From Methanobacteriota archaeon (GTDB lineage Archaea > Thermoplasmatota > Thermoplasmata > SG8-5 > JAGLSY01): a stretch of 64,000 nt of DNA. Shown piece after piece: positions 15,952 to 46,203 of the stretch. Each line of letters starts with the position of its first letter. Positions within the stretch are counted from its first letter, which is position 1. The notes under the pieces were generated by a model, which made no database searches, was not told where the DNA came from, and was given only the letters and a program-made list of their open reading frames with translations. Location: contig JAEHCO010000001.1 in assembly GCA_020697715.1 (NCBI GenBank), forward strand, positions 842,149-906,148, given 5' to 3'. The translations under genes and the position numbers were made by a program.

Positions 15952-18825
15952 TTATTCTGTCTTCTTCGCTGTTTCGTCTGATATTTCAGTCTCGGTGCTT
16001 GGTTCTTCAGCTGGAGTTTCTTCGTTTGGGGCTTCTGGCTCGATATCTGAAGGTGCTTTGCCAGGTCCCTTGCCCATCATCATGATCGCGACTACGGCCA
16101 CGACGATAAGAACTATACCCAGAATGGCAAAGACGATCATGCTATCACTATCGTCATCTGTACCCGCATCATCATCAGTGACATTGCCATCATCAGCATT
16201 ATCATCGATGGTATCTGTGTTATCACCGATACCATCGCCATCCGAGTCAGTGTCCTCTGTCTCATCCAGTGGGAAGTCATCATTGATATCCAGGACACCG
16301 TCACCATCATCATCATCGTCCTCGGCATTGGTCAGTCCATCATTGTCCGTATCGTATGGCATTGTGTCTGTCGTATCTGGGATCTTATCATTATCATCAT
16401 CACCATCGATATCATTGTCCAATCCGTCATTGTCCGTATCGTATGGCATGGTGTCAATGGTATCCGGGATCCCATCCTCATCATCATCCAGATCTGCATT
16501 GTCTCCAATACCATCACCATCATAATCCATGGTCTCGGAAGCATCCTTTGGGAAGGCATCATCTACATCATCTGTCCCATCATCATCATCATCTGTGTCC
16601 GCATTATCTCCGGTCCCATCTCCATCCGTATCGATGGATTCTGTCGCATCCAGTGGGAAGGCATCTGTAAGATCGGGCACGCCATCACCATCATCGTCGG
16701 TGTCCGCATTGTCTCCGATATTATCAGAATCGGTGTCATTCCACTCGCCAGCATTTTCTGGGAAGATATCCACAGTGTTATTGTAGCCATCTCCATCGAT
16801 GTCATCGTCCAATGAATCCGGTATTCCATCATCATCGATGTCGGATGGCATGGATGTATCATCCAGTGGGTCTGTCCCTTCCTGGATCTCCACCGTGTCG
16901 AGCCAGCCATCTCCATCATCATCAGTGTCTACATCGTCACCGATGCCGTCTCCGTCCGTATCATTGTCTATAAAGAGAACCTTCGAGGCCATGTTATTGT
17001 CCTCGAATGCCTCATCAATGGCATCCAATGGGTCGAGAGTGACATTTATCGTATGATTGCCTGGAGTGGCTGTCCAGTTGAAGGTGACAATGGTGTATTC
17101 GCCATCATTCAAAGTGGTGATATTATCAGAACCCAGATATGTCTCATTTGTTGTGAAGCTGGTGAAGTTCAGAAGGATATCCGTGGCTGGGGCATTTCCC
17201 GTATTGCTCACATTTATCATCATCTCTATGATATTTCCTTCAAGGTAGGTGCCAACTGTATCATTGAACTCCAGATCCGTATCATCAATGTTAAGATCCG
17301 CTATTGGAACAGAGTTGACCTGTATGGAGAAATTCTTATATCCAGTTACCACACCGAACAATGTACCATCAACAGTTACATTTACAGTGTAAGTGTCCTC
17401 AGTTGCAGGAACTGTGATCAAGACATTGAAATCACCATTTGTATCTGTGACCACCGTGTCATTGGAGAGGGCGGTACCATCAATGGAAACATTGACCATT
17501 TCTCCTACTGAGGGATCGCCATTTCCGTATGTGGCTGTTCCATTGACCCATATCTGTGTGCTTGGAAATGCTATGGTGGGATCTGCATTGGCTGTCACAT
17601 CCAGAACAGGTGTCTGGACATCGACATCGATCGTATTGGATAGTTCGCTGTCATCATAGGTCTCATCAATGGCAGTCACGGTTATGGTACAGGCTCCTGG
17701 AGTCATTGGTAAAGTGACTTGCTGGCTGAAATTACCGTCAGCATCTGTGGATATCGCGTGATTGCCTGTGCTAAGATTGACCCAGGCCTTTGTTGTCTCG
17801 ACAGGGGTTCCATCATCATATTTGACGGTGCCGTTCACAAGAACAGATTCACCGGGATAAACAGAAGTTGGGAAAGCCGTTAGAGCGATATCATCCACTT
17901 GCGGAAATGCCACTACTTGGAACATGACATCGGCAGATACACATGGCACATTCCTTGTCTCATTACCAGCCCAGTTCTGGGTCGTATTGGTCATGTCAGT
18001 GCTGATATTGTAGAATCCAGGTGTGGTTGGAGCTGTGATCATAAATGAGTAATTCCCATTAGCATCTGTCTTGCCATTTATAGTGGGGTTGTAGGTGAGG
18101 CTCATGGGTGTGTCTTCAACAGGTATCAAATGTGAATAATTGCCTGGCTTTGATGTACTTGGCCAGTAATGTGCACTTCCATTCACCCAGAAGGTCTCAC
18201 CAGGATCCAAAATAGCCTTTGAGGCGACAGAGGTCGCATTGGTCTGTTCCGGAGGCCAGGCGGGGTTGACGTAGATCCTGTCACCATTATCAATACCATC
18301 TCCATTAAAATCAGGATAATATAACCAATCCCAGGTGGTTGTATTTTCTAAATATAGCGTAAAGTAAAAATCATATCCGTCTCCATGGGAAGCCTCGTAT
18401 ACATTGGCTGACAGCCCCTCATCTCCGGGTAATTGGTAAGTGAAGAGATTGTAAGTAGTCATGTTTATGGGAGAAAGCTCGACCCAAGGAGGGGGCGTGT
18501 CATAACATATGGTATGATTACAATATCCTGTAAAGATCTCTGCATAATCAATTGATAGATTCGTCATAATATTCAATGTTATTATGTCTCCTGCCTCTTC
18601 AATTTCAATATATGAAGGTTGAATTCCAATTGCCTCCCAGTAAATACCCATCGGATACCTGGGAGTGGTGTAAATATCTATTATAGCGTCCTCTTGTGGT
18701 ATGACAATTGGGGCTGAAACTTCTTCCTGCTGTGGCATCGAAGTACCTGGCCCAATCATCAATGGGGTCATGAAGCTCAATATCAGAATTCCTGCTATCA
18801 TCATGCTGAACTGTGTTTTCTTCAT
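15952..18825 (-). CDS. Cell-surface protein: signal peptide, Ig-like and CARDB domains, thrombospondin type-3 repeats, C-terminal TM
   Basis: Signal peptide; CARDB-like VSNTGNAPA...DPLDAIDEAFEDNN; many DxDxDGxGD/DAFP repeats; TM helix followed by an acidic tail. Confidence 0.85.
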   Translation of the reverse strand: MKKTQFSMMIAGILILSFMTPLMIGPGTSMPQQEEVSAPIVIPQEDAIIDIYTTPRYPMGIYWEAIGIQPSYIEIEEAGDIITLNIMTNLSIDYAEIFTGYCNHTICYDTPPPWVELSPINMTTYNLFTYQLPGDEGLSANVYEASHGDGYDFYFTLYLENTTTWDWLYYPDFNGDGIDNGDRIYVNPAWPPEQTNATSVASKAILDPGETFWVNGSAHYWPSTSKPGNYSHLIPVEDTPMSLTYNPTINGKTDANGNYSFMITAPTTPGFYNISTDMTNTTQNWAGNETRNVPCVSADVMFQVVAFPQVDDIALTAFPTSVYPGESVLVNGTVKYDDGTPVETTKAWVNLSTGNHAISTDADGNFSQQVTLPMTPGACTITVTAIDETYDDSELSNTIDVDVQTPVLDVTANADPTIAFPSTQIWVNGTATYGNGDPSVGEMVNVSIDGTALSNDTVVTDTNGDFNVLITVPATEDTYTVNVTVDGTLFGVVTGYKNFSIQVNSVPIADLNIDDTDLEFNDTVGTYLEGNIIEMMINVSNTGNAPATDILLNFTSFTTNETYLGSDNITTLNDGEYTIVTFNWTATPGNHTINVTLDPLDAIDEAFEDNNMASKVLFIDNDTDGDGIGDDVDTDDDGDGWLDTVEIQEGTDPLDDTSMPSDIDDDGIPDSLDDDIDGDGYNNTVDIFPENAGEWNDTDSDNIGDNADTDDDGDGVPDLTDAFPLDATESIDTDGDGTGDNADTDDDDDGTDDVDDAFPKDASETMDYDGDGIGDNADLDDDEDGIPDTIDTMPYDTDNDGLDNDIDGDDDNDKIPDTTDTMPYDTDNDGLTNAEDDDDDGDGVLDINDDFPLDETEDTDSDGDGIGDNTDTIDDNADDGNVTDDDAGTDDDSDSMIVFAILGIVLIVVAVVAIMMMGKGPGKAPSDIEPEAPNEETPAEEPSTETEISDETAKKTE
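16200..16970 (-). repeat. Coding tandem TSP3 calcium-binding repeats
   Basis: Repeated DTDDDGDG / DAFPLD / DTMPYDTDNDGL units; boundaries approximate. Confidence 0.8.
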
Positions 18826-32575: not shown

Positions 32576-34225
32576 TTAAATCACATAATTCTCTTTGTCA
32601 AGGAAATCCTTGAATTCTTTTACTGAATGAAGGGCTTCTGGATAATTCTTATCCTTCATCGCGATATTTGCCTTTTTCAAAAATTCTACTGGCTTGGCAA
32701 TATCAATGTTCATCATCTTTATTTCCAATAGGCTTGTCTTGGCCTTTTTCATGGCTGTGGATATGTGAGTTGGAAGTATCTCATTAAGACTGTCCTGAGC
32801 CTGTTTCGCGAATATGGAGGCTGAGTTCCAATCTTCATTCTCAGCTGCTTTCTTTGCCTCATTGTAAAAGCTTAAAGCCGTTCCCATCTCGATGTTCATG
32901 GCCTTTGCATCTTCCATTGTGGCTCCCATTATTCTGAGAACGCTCTTTGCATCCAGAGCTTCTTCGCCCACGGTCTCTTTCAATAATGAATCCACTTTCT
33001 TTATCTCTAATAGAACTGTCTCAAAATCATATGAGGACATCGCATTTTGAATACTGGCCATGCTCATCTGGATAGCTGAAGAACCTTGGGTCTCCGCATC
33101 TGCCTCATTGGCCTTGAGCTTGAGAGCTTTCACCCTCTCGTTCATATGATCCATGATTATCTTTTCAATACCTGCCTTACCCTCTTCGACCAGTCTTACC
33201 GCGGTCTCAAGATCCTTATTCTTTCCTGCCGCCACGGCTTGATTTATCAGGCCTCTGCTTTTGGTTACATTTATCTCGCATCTTTTGGCCACTGCGAGAT
33301 ATTTTTTCACTTCTCCAATTAGCTTGGGAAGTTCTTTGTATTTCTCTTTTAAATTGGCCCTGCTCTGTGCGGACATCTCTGCGGAAGGTGCGGATGCTTC
33401 TGCCGGAGCCGGCTGAGGTGTGGGTGTGGGTGTGGGTGTGGGTGTAGGTTTTTGTGCCGGGCTGATCTTTTCCTCGATCTTCGCAGGCTGTGGTTGAACC
33501 ACTTTCTCGGGTTGTGGCTTAGTGACCTCTGGTTTAGGCTGTGGTTGTTCTGTCACAACGGGTTTAGCAGCTTCTGGTTCAGGCTTCGCTTCAACTGCTT
33601 TCTCTTCCTTCATCGCCTTCATCCTTTCAGCAAAGCTCAATTCCTTTGCCGGTTCTGGCTCTGGTTTTGCCTCGACTACAGGAGCAGCAGGCTCTGAGCT
33701 CTCCCCCTTCATCGCCTTCATCCTTTCAGCAAAGCTCAGTTCCTTTACTGGCTCTGGCTCAGGAGTGGGTTCTGGAGTTGGCTCTGGGATCGCTTCTTCG
33801 GCCTCCTCAACTTCCTCATCCCCAAACTCCGCCCCACAGTTGGGACAGACATCGGTATTGATATCTACCAAGGTCTGGCATAATGGACATTCGAAGACCT
33901 CTCCTTCAGCAAATTCCACACCACAATTTGGGCAAGCGGCGGCATCTTCTGGAATTAATTTATTACATTCTGGACATTCGAACATCTCTGCCTGTGGTTC
34001 TGCTGTGGTTGCTGCAAAAGGATCTCCCTCCGCGGCCTTGAGAAGGTCGCCCATATGCCCATCTACCTGACCTACTAGCTCGACATCCTCCCCCACCTCC
34101 ACTCTTTGTCCATCGACCTGGAAAAGTGTCAGGTCTGTTTTGCAGGAAGGGCATGACTTGTCATCAAGCGGTACGCTCTCATCGCATACGGGGCATATTC
34201 TCTGTTTTGTCCCTGGCTCGCTCAT
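32576..34225 (-). CDS. Multi-zinc-ribbon protein with a Pro/Glu-rich linker and helical C-terminal region
   Basis: Six CPxC motifs forming three ribbons; linker with duplicated KELSFAERMKAMK; helical repeats at the C-terminus. Confidence 0.85.
   Translation of the reverse strand: MSEPGTKQRICPVCDESVPLDDKSCPSCKTDLTLFQVDGQRVEVGEDVELVGQVDGHMGDLLKAAEGDPFAATTAEPQAEMFECPECNKLIPEDAAACPNCGVEFAEGEVFECPLCQTLVDINTDVCPNCGAEFGDEEVEEAEEAIPEPTPEPTPEPEPVKELSFAERMKAMKGESSEPAAPVVEAKPEPEPAKELSFAERMKAMKEEKAVEAKPEPEAAKPVVTEQPQPKPEVTKPQPEKVVQPQPAKIEEKISPAQKPTPTPTPTPTPQPAPAEASAPSAEMSAQSRANLKEKYKELPKLIGEVKKYLAVAKRCEINVTKSRGLINQAVAAGKNKDLETAVRLVEEGKAGIEKIIMDHMNERVKALKLKANEADAETQGSSAIQMSMASIQNAMSSYDFETVLLEIKKVDSLLKETVGEEALDAKSVLRIMGATMEDAKAMNIEMGTALSFYNEAKKAAENEDWNSASIFAKQAQDSLNEILPTHISTAMKKAKTSLLEIKMMNIDIAKPVEFLKKANIAMKDKNYPEALHSVKEFKDFLDKENYVI
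33417..33446. repeat. Hexamer microsatellite (GGTGTG)x4-5 encoding a Pro-Thr repeat
   Basis: Four perfect GGTGTG units plus GGTGTA. Confidence 0.85.
33607..33738. repeat. 33-bp exact direct repeat with a 99-bp period
   Basis: CCTTCATCGCCTTCATCCTTTCAGCAAAGCTCA at 33607-33639 and 33706-33738. Confidence 0.85.
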
Positions 34226-34392
34226 CTTTCATCCGCCTTACTGACTGAAGTTCGAAACATGACCACAGGTATGCCCACTATACCTTTCAGTACACTGATC
34301 GAACTTGATATGAATAATGCCCAGTAATACTGAACAGTATATTTATCTTTTCGTATATACTCTATATAATGCTTTGTGGCCGCTTAGATAAT

Positions 34393-35571
34393 TCAACTTT
34401 CCTTACCTTTGGTGTTCTTGTGAACGATCTCGACCAGATCCCTGACCTTGAACTTCTTGCCGGTCTCCTTTTTGAAATCAGATGCGGCATTGGAGAACAT
34501 GGATTTACATGCCGGGCAAGCGGAGACAATGAAGTCTCCCTCCAATTCATTGGCCTCGGTAAGTCTGGCTTTTGCCATGGATGATGAGATATCATAGTTG
34601 GTGGATTGCAGACCGCCCCCACCTCCACAGCAGTGACTCTTATCTCTATTGAATTTGAATTCCTTCACTTCGGCAAAATGTGAAAGTAGTTTCCTGGGCT
34701 CGTCATACATTTCCGCATGGCGACCGAGATCGCAAGGATCGTGGTAAAGGACATTTCCTTCCAGCTTCTTGGTGACTGTGAGATCGCCTTTCTCGATAAG
34801 TTCGTCGAAGAACTCCAGTATGTGCTTGGATTCCAGACCGAGATCCACTCCATTCTCTGGATAGATATGATGGAGTGTCCTGTAGCATCCGGGACAAGGT
34901 GTGACCACCATTTTCGGTCTCGGGTTCAGTGTTTCGATCTGCTCCAGCAGGCCCTTCCCAAAAGCATCCGAGTCATAACCAGCCAGGTAATTGAGGAAAC
35001 CACAGCATGGCTCCTTCTCTCCCAGGGTGGTGTAGCTCACTCCTGCTCTTTCCAGTATCTTGAAAATGGCGGATGTCACCTTCATATCCGTATTGGATGC
35101 GACGCATCCCAGGAATACCAGCACATCTCCGCCGGTCCTCAGCTTGGCCTTTGCCTCATCAGGCAGGAACTCCTCCCTGGCACTTGCTGGTTCTCCCTGT
35201 GGATTGCCGTGCTTCTCAATATTTTCCAGAGCTAGTTCCATGGTTTCTGGAACCTCATGTAAGCCTGCCAGCTCCTGCCTGGCAGCCATGAGCACATCCA
35301 CGGTCTTGACATTGGAAGGACACCTGCGCATACAATCTCCGCAAGTGGTGCATTCGAATATTGATTGGACAACTGAATCGTCCACTGGTATGTCGCCTTG
35401 CAAAAGACCGTAGGCCAGCACCATCTTCGACCTGGCCGTATTGTGATCCCACAATGTGCCCTTGAAGGCCGGGCATACGGATTTACAATATCCGCAGGAA
35501 GTACAGAGTAATGTTTGATCATACAATGCCTTCAGCTTATCGCCCTTGATGTACTTCTTATCATCACTCAT
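34393..35571 (-). CDS. Fe-S oxidoreductase, GlcF/HdrD-like (two 4Fe-4S motifs and two CCG domains)
   Basis: CTSCGYCKSVCP, CTTCGDCMRRCP, EPCCG, YHDPCDLGR, HCCGGGGG and ACPAC. Confidence 0.9.
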   Translation of the reverse strand: MSDDKKYIKGDKLKALYDQTLLCTSCGYCKSVCPAFKGTLWDHNTARSKMVLAYGLLQGDIPVDDSVVQSIFECTTCGDCMRRCPSNVKTVDVLMAARQELAGLHEVPETMELALENIEKHGNPQGEPASAREEFLPDEAKAKLRTGGDVLVFLGCVASNTDMKVTSAIFKILERAGVSYTTLGEKEPCCGFLNYLAGYDSDAFGKGLLEQIETLNPRPKMVVTPCPGCYRTLHHIYPENGVDLGLESKHILEFFDELIEKGDLTVTKKLEGNVLYHDPCDLGRHAEMYDEPRKLLSHFAEVKEFKFNRDKSHCCGGGGGLQSTNYDISSSMAKARLTEANELEGDFIVSACPACKSMFSNAASDFKKETGKKFKVRDLVEIVHKNTKGKES

Positions 35572-37000
35572 CGAAGTTCACCTCCGCGGGGTATCTGAGG
35601 CTGAACATTATGTGCTCGCTCTCCCACTCGAACATCTTGCCCGGGTTCATGATATTATTTGGATCGAGAGCGTCCTTGATAGCTTTCATGGTCTTGATCG
35701 CAGTTGCTCTTTCCTTCTTCATGTAAGGGGCTTTGGCCATTCCCACACCGTGCTCGCCAGTCACTGTCCCATCGAGAGAAAGCACCAGGTCGTAGATCTC
35801 CTCCACTGCTTTTTCCGCGCGTTTCCAGTCATCTTCCTTGCTTGGATCGATGAGGAATTTCGTGTGAAGGTTACCATCACTGGCATGACCGTAAGTGGCG
35901 ATTATCACCTTGTTGCGGTCGGATATCTCTTTGAAACCAATGACCGCCTGAGCCACCCTGGAAATAGGAACGCCCATGTCATCGGCCAGTGATACGATCT
36001 TCAGCTCTGGGCTATAACCACCCAGAGCTGGCAGGACGGACTTTCTGGCCTCGTGCCAGAGGCCATAAACGGCTTTATCATCGGATACGATGATCTCGGT
36101 GGCTCCACTTGCCTTACAAACTTCCTCCACCTGTCGGATCTCGCGGCCAACTTCCTCGATAGGTCCGTCAACCTCGATTATCAGAATTGCTGGAACATCG
36201 GGCAAACCGGCATCGATCCCGCGGTTTGCCGCGGTGATGCAGGTATTGTCCATGATCTCCATGGAACTTGGAATAATAGGATGTGCAATTATATTCGAAA
36301 TCGCCTGGCCCGCTTTCTCCACCTTGTCAAAGCTGACTAAAGCTGCTGCAACAGCTTTAGGCAAAGCGACAATTTTTAAAGTAACTTCGGTGATGATACC
36401 CAGTGTGCCCTCAGAGCCCACGAATAACTTTTCCAATTGGTAGCCGGAGCTGTTCTTCAGAGTGTGCGTGCCAACCTTCATTATCTCCCCGGTTGGAAGT
36501 ACAACCTCCAGCCCAAGAACATAATCCCTTGTCGCGCCGTATTTGATGGCTCTCATTCCGCTGGCATTCAGTGACACCATGCCACCGATGTTAGCAGCTT
36601 CCGCGCTTCCTGGAGAGCCCGGGAACTGGTATCCCGCGCTTTTCAGCTCATTGTTCAGGTGATCGTAAATAACACCTGGCTCGACTATGCAGAACAAATT
36701 CTCGGGTGTTATGCTTTTGATCTTGTTCATGGCCTGCATGTCCAGAGTGATCCCGCCCTTGATGGGAACTGCTGCTCCACAAAGGCCAGTACCCGCGCCT
36801 CGCGGTGTTATCGGCACCTTGTACTTATTGGCCAGTTTCACTATCTTGGACACCTCTTCGGTATTCATCGGCCTAGCCACTGCATCGGGCATCGCCCGAT
36901 ATATGCTGGCATCTGATGAATAAGCATATCTGGCGGCCGTGCTGGTGGTGAAGTTCTCTCCTAAAAGCTCCTGCAATTCCTTGAACATTTCTTCGGACAT
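35564..37000 (-). CDS. FAD-linked D-2-hydroxyacid dehydrogenase, GlcD/D-lactate dehydrogenase family
   Basis: PRGAGTGLCG, IKYGATRDYVLGLEVV, GSEGTLGIITE, GHASDGNLH, TGEHGVG and DPNNIMNPGK. Confidence 0.92.
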   Translation of the reverse strand: MSEEMFKELQELLGENFTTSTAARYAYSSDASIYRAMPDAVARPMNTEEVSKIVKLANKYKVPITPRGAGTGLCGAAVPIKGGITLDMQAMNKIKSITPENLFCIVEPGVIYDHLNNELKSAGYQFPGSPGSAEAANIGGMVSLNASGMRAIKYGATRDYVLGLEVVLPTGEIMKVGTHTLKNSSGYQLEKLFVGSEGTLGIITEVTLKIVALPKAVAAALVSFDKVEKAGQAISNIIAHPIIPSSMEIMDNTCITAANRGIDAGLPDVPAILIIEVDGPIEEVGREIRQVEEVCKASGATEIIVSDDKAVYGLWHEARKSVLPALGGYSPELKIVSLADDMGVPISRVAQAVIGFKEISDRNKVIIATYGHASDGNLHTKFLIDPSKEDDWKRAEKAVEEIYDLVLSLDGTVTGEHGVGMAKAPYMKKERATAIKTMKAIKDALDPNNIMNPGKMFEWESEHIMFSLRYPAEVNFDE

Positions 37001-37162
37001 TTACATCATCCTCTGTCTGCGTGGAACACCCAGTCCCATACAGGTATCCAAAAGTTAACCCTGATAATGATATATAATTTCCGCATGAAAGCAGATATTT
37101 ATATGCGTATTATGTTTAGGTGACTTAGGTGAGAGGAGGAGTCGATCATTGTAGAAGAAGAT

Positions 37163-37408
37163 GTGAAAATCAGTAAAGGCGGATTGATCTTGATTATCTT
37201 TTGGCTGGCATTGATAAATTTCGTCATAATTTATATTAATATGACCTCCCCTTCTTTGGATAATGTTCATAATATGATCTACATGTTTGTTATCATCTTT
37301 TTATTCATCGTAATAATTGTTTTTATATTGATCTATTATCTGGATCATATTCGAAAGACCCCTAAACGAAGCCTCCCAGAGATTGATGAACCGTCGATGG
37401 AAGGATGA
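37163..37408 (+). CDS. Small two-TM hypothetical membrane protein
   Basis: Two hydrophobic stretches; start codon uncertain. Confidence 0.5.
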   Translation: MKISKGGLILIIFWLALINFVIIYINMTSPSLDNVHNMIYMFVIIFLFIVIIVFILIYYLDHIRKTPKRSLPEIDEPSMEG

Positions 37409-37505
37409 AGGGATGCCTCGCCTACAGGGCGGCATATAAATATTCGAATTGTGTTTAGGATACATATCAAACGAACATACTAAAATAAAGATAAGGTGAT
37501 GACAG

Positions 37506-37808
37506 ATGCCAGTACTTTGGTTTATGGAATATGATATTCCCAAGGATGCGGAAGCCAGTAAGAGATACATGAACTATATTTTTGATGAAGAATACAGTTG
37601 CATGGTGATGGACAAGTGCGAGAAGATAGGTGCGAAATTGAATGTCTGGTGCGATGATTCGAGCCATATTATTTTCACCATCGAGTTCGACACAATCGAG
37701 GACTATGACAGATTGTTCGAAGATCCCGAGTGGCAGAAAGGAATGGATCGCCTGAACCAGCTTGTTCTCAATGCGAATACCAGGATGATGCGACCTGCTG
37801 GGGAGTAG
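37506..37808 (+). CDS. Hypothetical protein, possible dimeric alpha-beta barrel fold
   Basis: AAGGTGA ribosome-binding site; IEFDTIEDYDRLFEDPEWQK pattern resembles NIPSNAP/DUF1330-like proteins. Confidence 0.6.
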   Translation: MPVLWFMEYDIPKDAEASKRYMNYIFDEEYSCMVMDKCEKIGAKLNVWCDDSSHIIFTIEFDTIEDYDRLFEDPEWQKGMDRLNQLVLNANTRMMRPAGE

Positions 37809-37872
37809 TTTTTTGCCACATGCAACGAAAGTCATATAAGAGAGACTTTCGATTCACATGAGAGGGAAGTAA

Positions 37873-38655
37873 TTGACTACAAAAGAAGATGTGCCAGATT
37901 CTATTACTGATAAGGAGTTAAGAGACCTGATTAGAGAAAATTATAAGCAATCAGTAGAATCAAGAGATTTTAAAAAATTAAACTCTTTTATACGTAAGTA
38001 TTCTAAAATTATTAATGCTAAAAGATTTTTCAATGAGTTTAAAAATGCCCTATCAGATCAACGTACTGAATTAAATAATTCTATAAAATATCTAGAACCC
38101 AGATATTCAATTTTTCGAGAGGCTCTTGATGCTGTAGCTAAACAGAGCCCTGCTCTATTTATGGACAAGATCAAAAACCCTCCAAATGTGTGCCTATTGA
38201 GAAATGAAATATTTAATGCATTTATCATTATCAAAAGAGAAGGTAGAATGTTTGCAGATTTGGAAGAACAAGACAAAATTGATAAAGAAATTCATTTGAT
38301 TCAGAAATGCTGGGAGCTCTATAAATCACAAAGAAATTTAATGTGTAATATGTTAGAAGAAATTAATAATCCATCAATGAAAGAATATGTTAGAGAGAAA
38401 GCAAAATTACATGATACGAAACTGTCCAGAAACATCAGAAATGCCGACTCACATTTAAGAGTACAAAATTTCCCCGAAAGAAGGATGGTTCATCTACGTA
38501 ATTTGCGTAATGATAAAATTGACTGGGAAGATGATATCCCATATGATGATTTTGAAGATATTTTCTATGATTTATTAAATTTCAATAATGCTATGGCAAC
38601 AGCAGAAGAGGAAGTCTCAATAGGCATATTAGAACAAATGGTGAAATCTCGATAG
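37873..38655 (+). CDS. AT-rich hypothetical protein with an RxxxxH (HEPN-like) motif
   Basis: Largely helical, charged sequence; IRNADSH at about 38434-38454. Confidence 0.55.
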   Translation: MTTKEDVPDSITDKELRDLIRENYKQSVESRDFKKLNSFIRKYSKIINAKRFFNEFKNALSDQRTELNNSIKYLEPRYSIFREALDAVAKQSPALFMDKIKNPPNVCLLRNEIFNAFIIIKREGRMFADLEEQDKIDKEIHLIQKCWELYKSQRNLMCNMLEEINNPSMKEYVREKAKLHDTKLSRNIRNADSHLRVQNFPERRMVHLRNLRNDKIDWEDDIPYDDFEDIFYDLLNFNNAMATAEEEVSIGILEQMVKSR

Positions 38656-38774
38656 CAAGCGCCCTTAACAGACGGGAGACAGTACGGGGAAAATAGTACT
38701 TTCACTCACCCTAGCCTATTACTTATATACAATCTACCTAATATGGTCTTTAGAAGTAAGGGAGGATAAGTTAA

Positions 38775-39176
38775 ATGCCAGAATTAAAAAATTACAGAGT
38801 GTTTATAAGCCATGCGTGGGAATACAATGCAGATTACCATAGATTAGTAAAAATGCTTAATGAGGCAGATCTATTCAATTGGTCAAATTACAGCGTGCCA
38901 GAACATGACCCATTGGATATGAAAGGATTAATGACTGCATTAGAAAGACAAATTGATCCAACAAATATTGTAATTATCCTATCGGGAATGTATGCTGCCC
39001 ATAGTGACTGGATACAAAAAGAGATAGATATAGCTATCAAGAAAGGTAAAACTATAATCGGAATTGCACCATGGGGTCAACAAAATATTCCTGTTGTCAT
39101 TCAAGAAGCCGCTGAAGATGTAATAAGATGGAATACAACATCTATTATTGATGCTATTCGGAAGTATGCTAAATGA
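38775..39176 (+). CDS. Stand-alone TIR-domain protein (MTH538/DUF1863, Thoeris ThsB-like)
   Basis: YRVFISHAW, NYSVP..DP, VIILSGMY...SDWIQKEIDIA (catalytic Glu position), IIGIAPWG and WNTTSIIDAIR. Confidence 0.88.
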   Translation: MPELKNYRVFISHAWEYNADYHRLVKMLNEADLFNWSNYSVPEHDPLDMKGLMTALERQIDPTNIVIILSGMYAAHSDWIQKEIDIAIKKGKTIIGIAPWGQQNIPVVIQEAAEDVIRWNTTSIIDAIRKYAK

Positions 39177-39649
39177 AAAAAACTGATTATGGAGAGCAAT
39201 ATAACGTGCATCTGCTGGAACAATATAAATTATATGTAGAAATGGCAGATCGCATAAGTATTCGAAGAGGTCAAACAAATAAATTTTATATTTCTCTCTT
39301 GTCAGGATTATTGGCTTTACTATCGATAATGATTGGAACAGAAGGCTTTGATGATATACGCTTGACCGTATTGTTTGCGATTGGATTTCTAGGAACTGTA
39401 CTATGTTTAGTATGGTTTATCAACATAAATTCATACAGACAGTTAAACACTGCTAAGTTTAAAATTATAAACAAAATGGAAGAGAGCTTACCATATCCCT
39501 GTTATGATCTTGAATGGAAACTCCTTGGCCAGGGGAAAGAAAGTAAGAAATATTTACAATTAACACGCGTAGAAAAATATATACCAATTATTCTTTCAGT
39601 TCCTTACATATTACTGCTTGGATATACAATATATATTTGGTTTATTTAA
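39173..39649 (+). CDS. Three-TM membrane protein, RipA-like octameric membrane protein family; putative defence effector
   Basis: LLEQYKLYVEMADRISIRR..TNKFY, W...INSYRQLNTAKF.II..ME..LP, EW..L and LT.VEKYIP; ATGA overlap with the TIR gene. Confidence 0.75.
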   Translation: MKKTDYGEQYNVHLLEQYKLYVEMADRISIRRGQTNKFYISLLSGLLALLSIMIGTEGFDDIRLTVLFAIGFLGTVLCLVWFININSYRQLNTAKFKIINKMEESLPYPCYDLEWKLLGQGKESKKYLQLTRVEKYIPIILSVPYILLLGYTIYIWFI

Positions 39650-39794
39650 TATTCAAGAACCCCTAGTAGGCAGGGCTTGATGCAGGGCACAATGTTAGGG
39701 GAGTAAGAAGCCAAGAATCCCCCTAGTCTGATCTAACCCGATGATAATTTTATTAACACAATATAACTTCAGGTTTCCCACAGGGAGCAATAAG

Positions 39795-41051
39795 ATGAAA
39801 TTCAATATTCCATATGGAAAGGAAAGTGTTGAGATCGATTTTGATTTACCGCATACGATCCTGATGCCCAATTCGGTCGAGGTCAGGGACGAGGCCAAGG
39901 TGCTGGATGAAGCTCTGGCCAACCCGATTGGGTCGGTGCCTTTTTCAGAGTTCGCTGATAAATCCGAGAGAATGCTGGTCATCGTGAATGACGCGACAAG
40001 GCCGACACCGACGAAGAAGGTGTTGGAACTTCTTCGTGACGACTTGACCGCGCATCCGGATGTGACCTATGTCGTGGCTACTGGAGTTCACAGAGCTCCG
40101 ACTGATGAGGAATACCAATTCATCTTCGGGGACATGTACGAAGATGTTAAAGATAAAATAATCGCGCACGATGCGAGAAAAGATGAGGATATGGTGTATC
40201 TGGGCGTGTCGAAGAATGGAACAGAAATGTACCTGAATAAAATAGTTCCAGAGATCAAGAATGTGGTCGTCATCGGCAGTGTGGAGCCGCATTATTTCGC
40301 TGGATACACGGGAGGTCGAAAAGCATTCCTTCCGGGTGTCGCTTCCTACAAGACAATTGAAATGAACCACAAGGCCGCGCTCAGCGATTCCGCAAGGTCA
40401 CTGGCATTGGAGGGAAATCCAGTTCATGAGGACATGATAGATGCGATGAACGTGCTGAAGGACATCAATGTCTTTTCCATTCAGACGGTACTGACTGGCG
40501 ACCACAGTATTTACGCGGTTACTGCTGGGGATCTTTTCCAGAGCTTCGATGCCGCTATCGAGAGAGCCAATGAGGTGTTCTGCGTGCCACTGGATGCGAA
40601 AGCAGATATTGTGATCTCTGTAGCTCCGTATCCGATGGACATAGACCTGTATCAGAGCCAGAAGGCACTGGATAACAGCAAGCTGGCATTGAAGGACGGC
40701 GGAGTTACGATAATAGTTTCCAAGTGCAGGATGGGAGTGGGAGAAGAAGCCTTCCTCGACCTGCTTGGAAGTGCCGCGACACCCGAAGAGATAATGAAGA
40801 AGCTGGAAGGCGAGTATAAGTTAGGATACCACAAGGCGGCGAAGATGGCGCAGATAGGGACCTGGGCCAGTATTTACGGGGTCACTGACCTTTCGGACGA
40901 GATGATGCTGAAGGCACATCTCAAGCCTTTCGCATCCGTGCAAAAGGCTTTGGATGCCGCGATCGTGGAAATGAAAGGCAAGGGCAGGGAACCTAGTCTC
41001 GTGATAATGCCAGCCGGTAGTTTGACCATACCATTAGTGAGGGGTGAATAA
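39795..41051 (+). CDS. larA: LarA-family nickel-pincer 2-hydroxyacid racemase
   Basis: PYG, ALANPIG, IVNDATRPTP, ATGVHR, PHYFAGYTGGRK and DLYQSQKAL. ATG 39795 (track 39741). Substrate is uncertain. Confidence 0.88.
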   Translation: MKFNIPYGKESVEIDFDLPHTILMPNSVEVRDEAKVLDEALANPIGSVPFSEFADKSERMLVIVNDATRPTPTKKVLELLRDDLTAHPDVTYVVATGVHRAPTDEEYQFIFGDMYEDVKDKIIAHDARKDEDMVYLGVSKNGTEMYLNKIVPEIKNVVVIGSVEPHYFAGYTGGRKAFLPGVASYKTIEMNHKAALSDSARSLALEGNPVHEDMIDAMNVLKDINVFSIQTVLTGDHSIYAVTAGDLFQSFDAAIERANEVFCVPLDAKADIVISVAPYPMDIDLYQSQKALDNSKLALKDGGVTIIVSKCRMGVGEEAFLDLLGSAATPEEIMKKLEGEYKLGYHKAAKMAQIGTWASIYGVTDLSDEMMLKAHLKPFASVQKALDAAIVEMKGKGREPSLVIMPAGSLTIPLVRGE

Positions 41052-41913
41052 TTTGTTTGATGAAGAAAAAGTATTGAAGGCTCTGGTGAAGGGCATGAGG
41101 GATGGAGTTATAGAATTACCACTGGATGTGCACGAGAAGATAAAGGAAGCACATGCGAAGGAGACCAATGAGACCGCTAAGAATCAACTGGAGGCCATAC
41201 TGACGAATATCCAGCTGGCACACGATGGGCAAGCTCCAATGTGCCAGGATACTGGCGTGCAGATATTCTTCATAAAAGCGGGCTATGATTTCCCATATTT
41301 GAAGGAACTGGTAAAGCTCGTTCCAAAGGCCATAGCGAAGGCCACGACGGATGTTCCATTGAGGCCGAACACAGTGAATCCATTTGATGGCACTAATCCA
41401 AAAAATAACTTGGGCTTCAATATGCCCGCTATGACCATCGACATGGTGGAAGGCGATGGAGCAACGGTCTATGTCTTCCCCAAGGGCGGTGGAAGCGAGA
41501 ACATGTCCAAGCTCTGGATGCTTACGCCAGCACAGGGCTTCAAGGTCATGAAACAGAAGATAATCGAGCAGGTTCAATTCGCAGGAGGCAAGCCATGCCC
41601 GCCGATAGTTGTCGGAATTGGCATTGGAGGGGGAGCGGACATCGCGATGAAGCTGGCGAAAAAGGCACTTCTCCGACCACTGGATGAGCCAAATCCAAAG
41701 CCCGAGATCGCGGAGATGGAGAAGGAACTCCTGGACATGATAAACTCATTGGGTGTGGGAGCGATGGGAATGGGCGGAGATACGACATCTCTCGCGGTCC
41801 AGATCGAATACACGAACAGACATCCCGCGACCTTCCCGGTCGGGATGGTGATTCAGTGCTGGTGTGACAGACGCCAGAGCATTAAGATAAACAAAGACGG
41901 GATGGTGGTGTAA
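41044..41913 (+). CDS. Class I Fe-S fumarate hydratase (tartrate dehydratase-like), alpha subunit
   Basis: [34 protein letters not shown] and IQCWC. Confidence 0.9.
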
Positions 41914-42510
41914 TTGGCTGAATACAGACTCACCACACCAGTTGATGAAGAGACAATTTCCAAGCTGAAAGTTAATGATGTCGTTTACCTGAGCGGTACT
42001 GTTTTCACCGCTCGCGACGAGGCCCACATGGAACTGATGGAGGACGGCGGTGTCGAGGGATTTGACATGACTGGCCTTGGTCTTTACCATGCTGGACCTG
42101 TGATGAAAAAGGAAGGAGACGAATGGCAAGTGGTATCCGCTGGCCCGACCACGAGTTATAGAATGGAAACTCTGGAGCCCAAGTTCCTGGACATGTTCCC
42201 GGTGAAGCTGATAATCGGCAAGGGCGGCATGGGTCCGCTTACACTCGCGGCCCTGAAGAAGAACAATGTCGTTTATGTATCATTCACTGGCGGAGCCGGA
42301 GCTCTGGCCGCGAAAGGTCTGGGCAAGGTCAAGACCGTTTATTACCTTGACAAGCTGGGCATGCCCGAAGCTGTCTGGGTCTTCGAGGCCAAGGAATTCG
42401 GACCACTCGTTGTGTCGATGGATTCCCACGGTGATTCCCTATACGATGTGGTCAATGCTAAGACCAAGCAGCAGATGGAGAAGATCTTCAAGGAAACGCT
42501 GGGTGTTTGA
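41914..42510 (+). CDS. Class I Fe-S fumarate hydratase, beta subunit
   Basis: TARDEAH, YHAGP, SAGPTTSYRM, IGKGGM, LGMPEA and DSHG. Confidence 0.9.
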   Translation: MAEYRLTTPVDEETISKLKVNDVVYLSGTVFTARDEAHMELMEDGGVEGFDMTGLGLYHAGPVMKKEGDEWQVVSAGPTTSYRMETLEPKFLDMFPVKLIIGKGGMGPLTLAALKKNNVVYVSFTGGAGALAAKGLGKVKTVYYLDKLGMPEAVWVFEAKEFGPLVVSMDSHGDSLYDVVNAKTKQQMEKIFKETLGV

Positions 42511-42529
42511 ATCTGGCCAACACTGAATG

Positions 42530-42556
42530 ATGACCGCGGAAAAACACCGCGGTCAT
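42530..42556 (+). terminator. 10-bp hairpin after the fumarase genes
   Basis: ATGACCGCGG-AAAAACA-CCGCGGTCAT. Confidence 0.55.
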
Positions 42557-42605
42557 AAACCTTTATTACTTTCTTTTCATTACCCACGGCACGAGAGTGA
42601 ATAAA

Positions 42606-43781
42606 ATGAAGATCCATGAATATCAGGCCAAGGAGATATTTGCCAGGTATGGAATACCCGTGCCAGAAGGTCAAATGGTCACAGAAGTGGGCGATGTAAA
42701 AAGATTTTTCGAAGAGAAGGGCGGGCCAGTTGTTGTCAAAGCTCAGATCCATGCCGGTGGCAGGGGTAAGGGCGGCGGGGTCAAGTTCTCCCCAACTGTC
42801 GAGGTCGCGGAACAGGCGGCCAAGGACATAATGGGCATGACATTGGTCACCCACCAGACCGGGCCAGAGGGAAAATTGGTCCAGAGACTTCTTGTCGAGA
42901 AGGCGGCCAATATCGAGACCGAGATGTACCTGGGATTCGTGATGGATCGTGAAACATCACGAGTTGCGATAATCGCTTCCACCGAAGGTGGCGTGGAGAT
43001 AGAAAAGGTCGCTGCTGAGACTCCGGAGAAGATAATCAAGATCTGGATCGACCCAGCTGTTGGTCTCATGCCTTTCCAGGCAAGGGAAGTTTGCTTCAAA
43101 TTGGGCCTTGAAGGAACTGCTTTCAAGGGCGGTGTGAAGATGCTTCAGAACCTTTACAGGATGTTCACTGAAGAGGATGCTTCCATGGCGGAGATCAATC
43201 CCATGATAGTTACAAAGGAAGGAGAAGCAATGGCGCTGGATGCGAAGGTCAATTTCGATGACAATGCCGGATTCAGGCAAAAACACCATGCGGAACTCCG
43301 TGACATCAGCGAGGAAGACCCACTGGAGGTCGAGGCTTCCAAGTTCGACCTCAATTATATCAAGTTGGATGGCAAGGTCGGTTGCATGGTGAATGGCGCG
43401 GGATTGGCAATGGCCACCATGGATCTCATCAAGCAATGTGGGAGCGAGCCAGCCAATTTCCTCGATGTCGGAGGATCAGCTTCTGCGGAAGGAGTGGAGA
43501 ATGCCTTCAGGATACTAATGAGCGACAAGGATGTCAAGTGCGTGTTGATAAATATCTTTGGCGGAATTGTCCGATGTGACAAGGTGGCCAATGGTGTTGT
43601 CGAGGCCATCAGGAATATCGGAAATGTTGAAGTTCCGATAGTTGTCAGATTAGAAGGCACAAATGCCAAAGAAGGCCTGGAAATAATCAACAATTCGGGA
43701 TTGAACTTCCACACAGCCCAGGGCTTTGCGGATGCGGCCAAGAAAGCTGCAGATCTTGCAGAAGGCAGAGGAGGTGCTTGA
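42606..43781 (+). CDS. sucC: Succinyl-CoA synthetase beta subunit
   Basis: [48 protein letters not shown] and [10 protein letters not shown]. Confidence 0.96.
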
Positions 43782-43782
43782 T

Positions 43783-44652
43783 ATGGCAATTTTACTAAAA
43801 GAACACACGAAAGTGATGGTTCAGGGACTTGGCAAGGAAGGCCAGTTCCATGCGGAGAAGATGTTGGAATGCGGAACAAAGGTCGTTGCAGGAATTCGAC
43901 CTGGAAAGGCAGGCCAGGACGTTCTCGGAATACCATGCTTCAATACAGTCGCGGATGCAAAAGCCGCGACTGGCGCCAATGCTTCCATCATATTCGTACC
44001 ATCGCCCTTCGCGGCAGACGCGGTCATGGAGGCCATAGATGCGGAACTCGAACTGGTCGTCTTGATAACCGAAGGAATTCCAACACTGGACATGATCAAG
44101 GTCAAGAACAAACTAAAGAACAGCAAGACGAATCTCATAGGTCCTAATTGTCCAGGTATAATCACACCAGGTATTGGCAAAATGGGTATCTTGCCAGTTA
44201 GTATCTTCATACCTGGCAAGTGCGGTGTCATATCCCGATCTGGAACTCTCACATACGAGGTCGCGGCCCAGCTAACAGCAGTTGGTATTGGCCAGAGCAC
44301 GTGCATCGGTATCGGAGGAGACCCTGTAATAGGAACCTCACACAGGGACGCTCTCGAGATGTTCAATAATGACCCGGACACGGACATGGTCGCGCTTATC
44401 GGTGAGATCGGTGGAACTGATGAGGAAATTGCAGCTGAATATATCAAGGACCACATGACGAAGCCAGTGGTCGCATTTATAGCCGGATCAACAGCCCCCA
44501 AGGGTAAGAGAATGGGTCATGCTGGTGCTATCATCGCTGGTGGAAAAGGAACCGCAGCGGAAAAGAAGGAAGCCCTTCGAGCCGCGGGTGTCGCGGTCGC
44601 AGACTCTCCGGCGGATGTGGGTATCACTGCAAAGAGGATACTGGAAGGTTAA
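43783..44652 (+). CDS. sucD: Succinyl-CoA synthetase alpha subunit
   Basis: [22 protein letters not shown] and KRMGHAGA (phospho-His). Confidence 0.96.
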
Positions 44653-44853
44653 GGTGCATGAGACCCTCGCCCTTTGGACGAGGGTTATCTTCTTCTTCTT
44701 CATCATCATCCCGCATAATTTATGCAATGCCAGTATATTATCTATAGAATGCGAAAAATAACAATTATTAATTAATAATATATCAAAAATGAGAATATAT
44801 ATATAGTACAAATGCCATTGTGTTATACATAGCCAATAAGGGAGGATTATGAT

Positions 44854-46203
44854 ATGTTAGTGTTAGTTAGATTATTTCCAAAAGGTGGATTGAGTAATTT
44901 CTGTAATGTGTTTGAGAGCGAGAAGAGAAACCTGTACTGGGACGATGTAAAGCCCCTGTATGCTCTTCGCCAGGAAGGCAAGAGATATGTCAGCATACTT
45001 CTGGATGTGAAGAAGTTCGAAGCTGTTGAGAATGTTTTCTTGAAGGACGTTATGGCCATGGCGTCAGTAAGCCAGACCCGTACCATCCCGATCATGAGCC
45101 CGATATATTTCCCACTTCCAGAGGGACATCCGGAAGATATGGATCGATACATCGCCGTGCTGAGGGTGGATCCTGAAAATTACAAATCCGTGTACGATAA
45201 TATCGCGGCAACCAAGACAGATGGCAATGCCTTCATCAATTATGTATCGTACTCATTTGGGGATGATGACATAATAGTTTCAATGTTCGCAAAGGACAGG
45301 GAAGCTGCCAATAAATTTGCCAATGATAAGATAAATTCCATCGATGGAGTGAATGCGATGGATGTCTCGAAGATAGTTCGAAGGCTACCTATGCTCCCTC
45401 AGAATGAGATGAATGCCCATACAGATAGATTTATTTATTCAGCTCCTGCGGGAGAGGGCGGATCTCTGAAAAACCCAGATCTATTCAATAAATATGCCAG
45501 CGAGAAGGATTCCTTCACGGTCATAGTGAGGATGTTTGGCAAGACTGGTATGACCAAGTTATGGGATGAGATAAAGTCAGATGTTCCCAAGTTCGAAACT
45601 GAATTTATCAAACCTCTCTATGCTTCAAGACCTGAAAAGAAGAATTATTCATCAGTGATCTTTGAAGTAAACAATTTCGAAGATCTCAAGGATTTCGTTG
45701 TGGACAATATGCAGAATATGAGCTCGGTCAGCAAAACAAGGACTATACCCATGCTCGAACCTACGTATTTCCTGATGCCTAAACAACATCCTGATGGTCT
45801 GTTCAGGTTCCTCATAACTCTGCGAGTTCTTCCAAAGCATTACCAGGCAGTACGTTCGAAGATCACGGGATATGCGTATCCTGACAATGTTTACCTCACC
45901 TATGTATCATACACTCTTGGAGAGGATGATCTATTGGTATCCGTGCTGGCAGAATCAAGGAAAGCTGTCCAGAACTTTGCCAAATTGGCCTTTGAGAATA
46001 TGGACAGTGTGACATCGTACGACATTTCCAATCAGATGGCCACAACGAGATTGACCAGCCCGGAGACTTGGAAGAAGCATCAGAACCGCTTCCTTTCGAA
46101 CTTTGACAAGCATCACAAGAAGGAGTATGATTCCAGATATGACTGGACTGATGAGTTCAAAGACGATGCCGCTATGTCTGGCGCCTTTGTCAGCGATCTA
46201 TAA
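44854..46203 (+). CDS. Internally duplicated protein made of four Lrp/AsnC ligand-binding (RAM)-like domains, no HTH
   Basis: The two halves align (KPLYA; SVSxTRTIP..P.YF..P..HP; LRV.P..Y; YVSY..G.DD..VS). G.xD and V..T.T patterns match RAM domains. Confidence 0.6.
   Translation: MLVLVRLFPKGGLSNFCNVFESEKRNLYWDDVKPLYALRQEGKRYVSILLDVKKFEAVENVFLKDVMAMASVSQTRTIPIMSPIYFPLPEGHPEDMDRYIAVLRVDPENYKSVYDNIAATKTDGNAFINYVSYSFGDDDIIVSMFAKDREAANKFANDKINSIDGVNAMDVSKIVRRLPMLPQNEMNAHTDRFIYSAPAGEGGSLKNPDLFNKYASEKDSFTVIVRMFGKTGMTKLWDEIKSDVPKFETEFIKPLYASRPEKKNYSSVIFEVNNFEDLKDFVVDNMQNMSSVSKTRTIPMLEPTYFLMPKQHPDGLFRFLITLRVLPKHYQAVRSKITGYAYPDNVYLTYVSYTLGEDDLLVSVLAESRKAVQNFAKLAFENMDSVTSYDISNQMATTRLTSPETWKKHQNRFLSNFDKHHKKEYDSRYDWTDEFKDDAAMSGAFVSDL

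Follow-up and report, generated by a model that had tools for sequence, protein, structure and literature searches.

Within a 64,000-nucleotide stretch of the genome of a Methanobacteriota archaeon (assembly GCA_020697715.1, contig JAEHCO010000001.1, positions 842,149 to 906,148 of the forward strand), two small overlapping genes encode a stand-alone TIR domain protein and a protein with three transmembrane (TM) helices that belongs to the Pfam family 8xMP. This whole stretch is called the window below, and positions without a prefix are those of the window. The two genes form a real, intact and horizontally acquired TIR-8xMP pair, which is a new archaeal member of a widespread Thoeris-like class. 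Judging from sequence comparisons, the pair is probably, though by no means certainly, a Thoeris-type abortive-infection module, in which an ADP-ribose (ADPR)-derived signal made by the TIR protein would gate an oligomeric 8xMP membrane effector. It is most likely a variant of a known anti-virus suicide system, and not a new kind of system.

A ThsB-type TIR gene overlaps a gene of the 8xMP family

The two genes, both with an ATG start and both taken from the list of open reading frames (ORFs), are as follows.

38775..39176, + strand: thsB-like gene encoding a 133-aa stand-alone TIR domain protein (Pfam and PADLOC ThsB matches)
39173..39649, + strand: 8xMP-family gene encoding a 158-aa three-TM protein, a putative membrane effector (PF24838 match)

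The stop of the TIR gene and the start of the 8xMP gene share 4 nt, ATGA, as the ORF coordinates require. An earlier note on this DNA had described a 133-aa TIR protein with FISH and WIQKEI motifs, whose gene overlaps by ATGA that of a 158-aa three-TM protein inside an AT-rich island. This description is borne out: FISH is found at residues 10-13 and WIQKEI at residues 79-84 of the translation, and the ORF coordinates, the hydrophobicity and the GC content agree with the overlap, the TM segments and the island, respectively. The TIR protein matched Pfam ThsB_TIR (PF08937) with 65.5 bits (E 6e-18, cut-off 21.2) and five ThsB models of PADLOC at E<=0.011, of which PDLC00418 was the best (E 1.9e-13). 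NCBIfam returned no family for either the TIR or the 8xMP protein.

The alignment of 33 8xMP-linked TIRs revealed that F10, S12, S40, E83, and W119 are invariant. E83 is part of W79-x3-E83 and is presumably, as in TIR enzymes generally, the catalytic Glu of the site that processes nicotinamide adenine dinucleotide (NAD+); it is a candidate catalytic residue of the window TIR. By sequence, the closest solved structure is MTH538 (PDB 1eiw, E 2.3e-9, residues 62-129), which like the window TIR is a small stand-alone archaeal TIR-like protein. The TIR protein of PDB 3h16 also aligns with the window TIR over FISHAW and over W..KE, the stretch opposite E83.

The 8xMP protein is conserved on its basic cytoplasmic face

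The 158-aa protein matched Pfam PF24838, '8xMP, octameric membrane protein family', with 136.3 bits (E 7.5e-40, cut-off 30) over profile positions 1-135 of 136, and membership was confirmed on the genome. The effector is a member of a catalogued family. No other Pfam family matched it at E<=1, and neither SLATT nor DUF4231 was among the matches. A search for homologues returned 811 at E<=1e-3, with 65-68% identity for the best non-self match. The window protein shares 57-65% identity with members from bacteria and archaea, and the named relatives are all annotated as 'hypothetical protein' or similar.

Three hydrophobic segments were detected at residues 36-59, 61-87, and 136-158 (Kyte-Doolittle scale, 19-residue window). 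The first 37 residues contain 7 Lys and Arg and the loop 85-135 contains 10, versus 1 in the loop 56-63. Judging from this charge bias, the N-terminus and the long loop face the cytoplasm, and the predicted topology is N-in/C-out. Residues conserved in at least 90% of the sequences make up 20 of the 37 N-terminal residues, 14 of the 18 of TM1, and 29 of the 51 in the loop 85-135, versus none of the 8 in the outer loop. Conservation is therefore concentrated on the basic cytoplasmic face and TM1: 49 of the 88 cytoplasmic residues are conserved at this level, and the cytoplasmic parts bear 17 Lys/Arg. The basic and aromatic residues that are invariant include R27, R31, R32, R89, K95, K97, Y88, and W115. 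Although the protein has no named domain there, these conserved parts provide a candidate binding surface.

The AlphaFold2 (AF2) monomer model is all-helical, with a predicted local distance difference test score (pLDDT) of 78. Foldseek found nothing in the PDB at E<=1e-3 for this model. A wide VIA-align search placed an SPX domain (5ijj) at the top with Z 10.2, followed by generic helical bundles including ClyA (Z 8.7). For helical proteins, Z values of this size are too low to be meaningful, and they point to no specific fold relative. Sequence searches of the PDB, with the single query and with the profile, gave noise (E 0.33-1.2). Among look-alikes in the ESM Atlas outside PF24838 the best score was 0.81, and a cluster of which 11% are PycTM scored 0.75; both are leads only. 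Prediction of a complex of two 8xMP chains with the TIR returned 'no answer' with a score of 0.00, which speaks neither for nor against binding. In the literature, we found no paper that names PF24838, the matches to '8xMP' and 'octameric membrane protein' concerning other things, and none that ties a TIR to 8xMP by name. The earlier note had also likened the effector to RipA/Rip1-like proteins linked to anti-phage pores; our literature search found nothing in support of that link.

The pair recurs in genomes of many phyla

We examined 80 genome loci carrying an 8xMP gene. They were drawn from Dehalococcoidia, cyanobacteria, Proteobacteria, Bacteroidota, Thermotogae, Methanosarcinales, Methanocella, Archaeoglobus, Nitrososphaeria, and others, and most are bacterial. 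Neighbours were defined as ORFs of at least 90-100 aa within ~1.5 kb, and in some loci the end of the contig is near. A homologue of the window TIR was located upstream of 8xMP on the same strand in 37 loci, and 36 of these 37 TIRs end within ~60 nt of the 8xMP start, as read from the coordinates. Pfam added a divergent ThsB_TIR directly upstream in L007, L079, and L083, and eight more loci (L013, L031, L051, L017, L028, L063, L065, and L080) had a TIR of the ThsB, TIR_2, or CAP12/Pycsar families within ~1.5 kb. Altogether, a TIR was present near 8xMP in 48/80 loci and directly upstream in 40/80. Because the pair recurs across phyla, the association is more than chance.

Other direct neighbours of 8xMP were a caspase (five loci), AbiJ_NTD4-DUF7014 (two loci), and radical SAM proteins. 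Three loci have compositions of their own: a split TIR of the CAP12 type with STING and 8xMP in an alphaproteobacterial metagenome-assembled genome (MAG; L031:3832-5477), a caspase with 8xMP and TIR_2 in a Cyclobacteriaceae MAG (L013:4006-6422), and TIR_2 with a RyR-domain protein and 8xMP in a Deferribacteres MAG (L051:3315-5430), where the RyR gene stands behind the TIR. Among 13 TIR-8xMP loci, with 102 neighbour ORFs, six had a neighbour with a PADLOC match at E<=1e-10 (BrxH/SngC, Csa3, PDC-S41/Nhi, HEC-01A/B, SoFic/mad3, and MTase/DrmD), a count with no background rate behind it. Matches to 8xMP were also found in 36 plasmid records.

The association was then viewed from the side of the TIR. 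A metagenome search with an alignment of the closest TIRs yielded 80 loci with TIRs that share 45-63% identity with the window TIR. An 8xMP gene was the neighbour in 20 of them, usually 3-60 nt downstream. For the remaining 60 loci, 90 of the 104 flanking ORFs were scanned, the 14 left out being those of 93 aa or less and the two of L130, a locus identical to L129. These 60 loci carried SLATT/DUF4231 (25 loci), TPR-S (7 loci), or a caspase (2 loci), and several had further TIR paralogues. The clade of the window TIR thus swaps 8xMP for SLATT, TPR-S, or caspase partners. In a quick maximum-likelihood tree of 81 TIRs, which is short and poorly resolved, the 8xMP-linked TIRs were interleaved with the rest: explaining the 8xMP label takes 11 changes, of which well-supported branches force at least three. 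The TIR most similar to the window TIR (64% identity) is SLATT-linked. Counted from both sides, a TIR is near 8xMP in 48/80 8xMP loci and 8xMP adjoins the TIR in 20/80 TIR loci, so that the co-occurrence called for in the earlier note is confirmed. The same note had proposed a minimal archaeal system; the pair is not specifically archaeal, since most of the 80 8xMP loci are from bacteria such as Dehalococcoidia, cyanobacteria, and Proteobacteria.

Two further observations were made on TIR loci. ORFs of 185-204 aa without a Pfam match follow close relatives of the window TIR (L129/L130:3477-4031, L140:3398-4009, L176:3427-4038, L196:1778-2383, and L198:1986-2591) and are possible further unrecognised Thoeris effectors. 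In addition, the genome of the window has a second TIR locus (C32:61034-62926, corresponding to L118:5034-6926, - strand), where ThsB_TIR genes of 256 and 191 aa flank a 193-aa ORF without a family match and an Imm5-like gene is close by. The locus may encode a further Thoeris-like system, one whose effector is unrecognised.

Comparison with the known Thoeris types

At the level of sequence, the locus has a ThsB TIR, a candidate Glu, an adjoining conserved effector gene, and a TIR clade linked to accepted effectors, which is what a Thoeris system is expected to show. The main text of a recent preprint (Yirmiya et al., bioRxiv 10.64898/2025.12.03.692087) predicts new Thoeris types from one TIR cluster linked to known and new effectors; its putative effectors number 29. 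It describes SLATT as the validated effector of type VII (ThsH) and a TPR-bearing protein as that of type VIII, both with canonical cyclic ADPR (cADPR), and a caspase-like protease as the effector of type IV. The terms '3TM' and 'PF24838' do not occur in that main text.

Type V, which comprises ThsB and ThsF (DUF2270/PF10028), is similar in that, as presented there, it is a two-gene operon of a TIR and a small three-TM protein without a classical sensor domain. In 8xMP the parts also follow one another as in ThsF: an N-terminal helix in the cytoplasm is followed by a TM hairpin, then by a helical loop of ~50 residues, again cytoplasmic, and finally by the third TM helix. However, no PF10028 match at E<=1 was found on the 8xMP protein or anywhere in the genome. 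The comparison of 8xMP with DUF2270 by hhalign was collinear over 128 columns and not significant (probability 0.9%, E 0.062), both alignments being shallow. The type V signal, 3'cADPR, as given in the same main text, cannot be assumed for the TIR-8xMP pair.

Type VII (ThsB and ThsH) likewise combines a TIR with a membrane-spanning effector, and relatives of the window TIR with up to 64% identity adjoin SLATT in 25 of the 80 TIR loci, interleaved in the tree. It differs in that 8xMP lacks a SLATT or DUF4231 signature, has three TM helices, and is far more conserved in sequence (57-65% identity between bacteria and archaea). With types I, II, and IV, whose effectors are SIR2-SLOG, TM-Macro, and caspase-like proteins, the pair would share a ThsB-type TIR as infection sensor and signal maker with the effector encoded alongside, and with type II also killing via the membrane. 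Unlike in these types, none of those effector genes is located in or beside the island. The scan of the ORFs from 32576 to 46203 agrees with the earlier statement that no SIR2-SLOG, Macro, or caspase gene is nearby. Against PADLOC v2.0.0, whose types I and II have a ThsA effector, neither the 158-aa protein nor the other island ORFs apart from the TIR gene gave any match. No complete-system match was returned, because the membrane protein is not among the models of PADLOC v2.0.0.

The logic of a membrane effector is not unprecedented, given that Thoeris types II, V, and VII use membrane effectors. The preprint's main text (bioRxiv 10.64898/2025.12.03.692087) models ThsF as a ring-shaped homo-oligomer with basic pockets between protomers, and describes both ThsF (three-TM) and the SLATT effector as lacking classical sensor domains, with basic inter-protomer pockets modelled. 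The argument that an effector without an obvious ligand-binding domain must have a new mechanism is therefore weak, the more so as 49 of the 88 cytoplasmic residues of 8xMP are conserved.

The pair lies on a low-GC segment missing from a same-genus genome

The segment that carries the pair and the other features on it are listed here.

37816..39774, no strand: inserted or deleted segment carrying the whole island, missing from the same-genus genome G303, of low GC content
37820..37857, + strand: repeat module of 35-38 nt that contains an 8-bp hairpin and marks the 5' edge of the island
37873..38655, + strand: near-orphan ORF of 260 aa (ORF list)
39660..39701, + strand: inverted repeat CCCCTA...TAGGGG right after the 8xMP stop, read by eye

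The GC content was 0.375, 0.330, and 0.369 across 37001-40000, versus 0.48-0.53 on either side. The genome G303, of the same genus and 94% complete, is collinear with the window at 88-90% identity over 35564-37120, 37435-37815, and 39775-41913, and in the alignment it has 77 nt in place of the 1959 nt of the window; by eye, host-like sequence may resume near 39694. In a sample of 301 genomes of the phylum, the genome of the window included, 9 scored above the cut-off of PF24838; none of three same-genus genomes (74-94% complete) did. The low-GC insertion or deletion (indel) relative to G303 and the patchy distribution of PF24838 indicate horizontal acquisition, and the TIR-8xMP pair is on a horizontally acquired cassette of ~1.9 kb. 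A look-up of sequencing runs for 37816-39700 listed none, which speaks neither for nor against expression.

The three other ORFs of the island had no significant Pfam or PADLOC match. For the 260-aa ORF, nothing rose above noise in Pfam, PADLOC, or NCBIfam, and the protein has just three relatives among 1.84 billion representatives. By tblastn it was not found in any of the 80 8xMP loci; it was co-inserted with the pair and is not a conserved partner of it. In the alignment of four sequences, R189, A191, and H194 (Rx4H; R-x-A-x-x-H) are invariant. No fold in the PDB matched the AF2 model (pLDDT 79.7) at E<=1e-3. A reading as a HEPN RNase would suit the invariant Rx4H motif, but the model puts beta strands right after the motif, without a fold match. 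The inverted repeat at 39660..39701, recognised by eye, may be a terminator or the end of the element; the region 39650-39790 matched only itself in a blastn search of its own genome.

The remaining matches of the ORFs from 32576 to 46203 were to a zinc-ribbon protein, CCG/Fe-S, an FAD-linked oxidase, LarA, the alpha and beta chains of fumarase and of succinyl-CoA ligase, and an AsnC-type domain, and to nothing else. To the left of the indel there are two more ORFs in AT-rich sequence. One (37163-37408) encodes an 81-aa two-TM protein with weak matches to TMEM128 and PycTM only. The other (37506-37808), of 100 aa, has 89% DNA identity in the sister genome, and its conservation there assigns it to the host backbone, outside the island.

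How the pair may work, and what else it could be

We propose that upon virus infection, the TIR protein would sense the infection and convert NAD+ into an ADP-ribose-derived signal. Canonical cADPR would be the first candidate, because SLATT-linked (type VII) TIRs, reported in the main text of bioRxiv 10.64898/2025.12.03.692087 to make cADPR, are interleaved with the 8xMP-linked TIRs. The signal would bind the cytoplasmic N-terminal helix and the TM2-TM3 loop of an oligomeric 8xMP ring. The ring would then open or otherwise disrupt the membrane, and the cell would be halted before the virus matures. The earlier note had likewise read the locus as Thoeris-like, with the TIR as the signal maker and the three-TM protein as the effector. 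That part is strengthened by the pairing found in both directions and by the position of the TIR clade beside validated effectors, whereas the minimal archaeal novelty and a necessarily new mechanism are not upheld.

Several points weigh against this proposal. On the side of the TIR, the protein is just 133 aa long, without an extra sensor domain. MTH538, its closest relative of known structure, has Ala at the position of E83 and Glu at that of W79 in the sequence alignment; with Ala there, MTH538 may not share the catalytic residue. On the side of the effector, the Pfam search gave no recognised nucleotide-binding domain in 8xMP, and its oligomeric state and pore formation are taken solely from the name of the Pfam family and from analogy. 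As for the association, 32 of the 80 8xMP loci have no TIR within ~1.5 kb; 8xMP stands with a caspase alone in L008, L016, L053, and L061, and beside AbiJ_NTD4-DUF7014 (L029) or a radical SAM protein elsewhere, so that it does not strictly need a TIR. Moreover, the TIRs in L028 and L031 are of the CAP12/Pycsar NADase-effector type, not ThsB. The neighbours of the window island are housekeeping genes, with no defence island around it, and in the literature we found no biochemical or phage data for any TIR-8xMP pair.

The exchangeability of the 8xMP neighbour also fits a reversal of the roles, the main alternative, which we consider unlikely. In that case the 8xMP ring would be a membrane sensor or scaffold, responding for example to envelope perturbation at virus entry or lysis, and its soluble neighbour the effector: here the TIR as an NAD+-depleting enzyme, elsewhere a caspase, an AbiJ-type protein, or STING-TIR, activated by contact and without a diffusible signal. 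The neighbours of 8xMP indeed include three TIR Pfam families, caspases (5 loci), AbiJ_NTD4-DUF7014 (L028 and L029), a split TIR-STING (L031), and RyR (L051). The CAP12/Pycsar-type TIRs among them belong to a family annotated as NADase effectors, and translational coupling through ATGA is consistent with a stoichiometric complex. However, the clade of the window TIR itself swaps among SLATT, TPR-S, and caspase, which are effectors in validated Thoeris types, and this makes the TIR the constant signal maker there. The caspase, 8xMP, and TIR of L013 resemble a two-effector Thoeris operon such as the ThsH and ThsI operon described in the main text of bioRxiv 10.64898/2025.12.03.692087. Besides, 8xMP is conserved on the cytoplasmic side and not in its outer loop, which one would not expect of an envelope sensor.

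It is very unlikely, in our estimate, that the two genes are a selfish, toxin-antitoxin-like pair whose main effect is to secure retention of the cassette, with 8xMP as a latent toxin that is checked by, or co-expressed with, the TIR-like protein. Such a role would suit two small genes that are translationally coupled and lie on an inserted cassette, and would also agree with the 36 plasmid records matching 8xMP and the PIN-domain and other toxin-antitoxin-like genes near 8xMP in L024, L038, and L077. The invariant catalytic-type Glu and the ThsB membership nevertheless point to enzymatic signalling, and validated defence effectors are partners of the same TIR clade; a pair may in any case act both as toxin-antitoxin and in abortive infection. 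We likewise regard as very unlikely a role outside defence, with 8xMP as a housekeeping or stress membrane protein and the MTH538-like protein as a nucleotide- or nucleoside-handling partner enzyme: the housekeeping genes that flank the island, the 7 of 13 TIR-8xMP loci without a defence neighbour at E<=1e-10, and the sub-threshold matches of three divergent 8xMP-linked TIRs to nucleoside 2-deoxyribosyltransferase would agree with it, but the patchy distribution in the phylum and genus, the low-GC indel, the swapping of partners from defence effector families, and the defence neighbours in the other 6 loci do not.

A hairpin repeat at the island edge is shared with cassette-like arrays

The repeat module at 37820..37857 consists of an 8-bp hairpin, CGAAAGTC...GACTTTCG, and a core resembling a transcription factor B recognition element (BRE) and a TATA box, 15 nt before the 260-aa ORF. 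From inspection of these motifs, it is a candidate promoter-like element. One exact copy was present in the window, with none expected by chance, and twelve copies were found in the genome at up to 5 mismatches; the predicted DNA fold has -7.1 kcal/mol. The module is also part of a composite repeat of ~110 nt, in which a short linker joins a left module (~50 nt, two predicted hairpins) to a right module of 35 nt, the latter being the 8-bp hairpin with the BRE/TATA-like core. The TIR-8xMP island starts with the right module alone.

The composite repeat had 21 matches in the genome at E<=1e-6, at C1:18399-22614 and on C4, C7, and C24 (loci L112, L113, and L115-L117). On small contigs, the repeat stands between ORFs of ~90-310 aa that lie on the same strand and lack a Pfam match, and this region of repeats and orphan ORFs is cassette-array-like. 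The same-genus genomes have 3-6 copies each, and a match was found in 1 of 17 other relatives. No Rfam family matched the repeat. Two other explanations of the repeat were rejected: a CRISPR array, because tandem repeats are absent and the copies are 0.3-1.7 kb apart, and a by-product of gene paralogy, because the genome encodes no paralogue of the 260-aa protein.

An IS200-like Y1 transposase gene of 223 aa (C1:16308-16976, - strand; Y1_Tnp, 100 bits) and a tRNA gene (C1:~17057-17144; Rfam, 55 bits), covered by L115 and L112:258-345, lie just ahead of the first cassette in the C1 array. The transposase may be what mobilises the array, and the tRNA gene the site at which it integrates. At the site of the window island no recombinase was found, and the right end of the island has no significant similarity to the repeat. 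A possible likeness of the island to an IS200/IS605-type or integron-like cassette would lie in its left edge, a hairpin repeat common to the C1 arrays beside Y1_Tnp and the tRNA.

What the pair would mean for archaeal immunity

A broader picture can be drawn tentatively, and we hold it to be possible yet doubtful. 8xMP might be a general-purpose membrane executioner of prokaryotic immunity, gated via its conserved cytoplasmic face without a classical sensor domain, and used interchangeably by ThsB TIRs (probably with canonical cADPR, as for SLATT), by CAP12-type TIR/STING pairs, and by caspases. The archaeal copy might then be a cassette of an undescribed array system, marked by the promoter-bearing hairpin repeat beside the Y1 transposase and the tRNA. 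The practical value of the locus is modest, the TIR-8xMP pairing being common, and the cassette-array repeat at the island edge may be a more original lead than the gene pair itself.

If the proposed function is correct, a very widespread and unusually conserved family of membrane effectors would be added to immunity based on TIR signalling, and archaea would be shown to carry the system. With 158 residues and no add-on sensor domain, the effector would then offer a compact system in which to study the opening of a membrane assembly by a small nucleotide signal.

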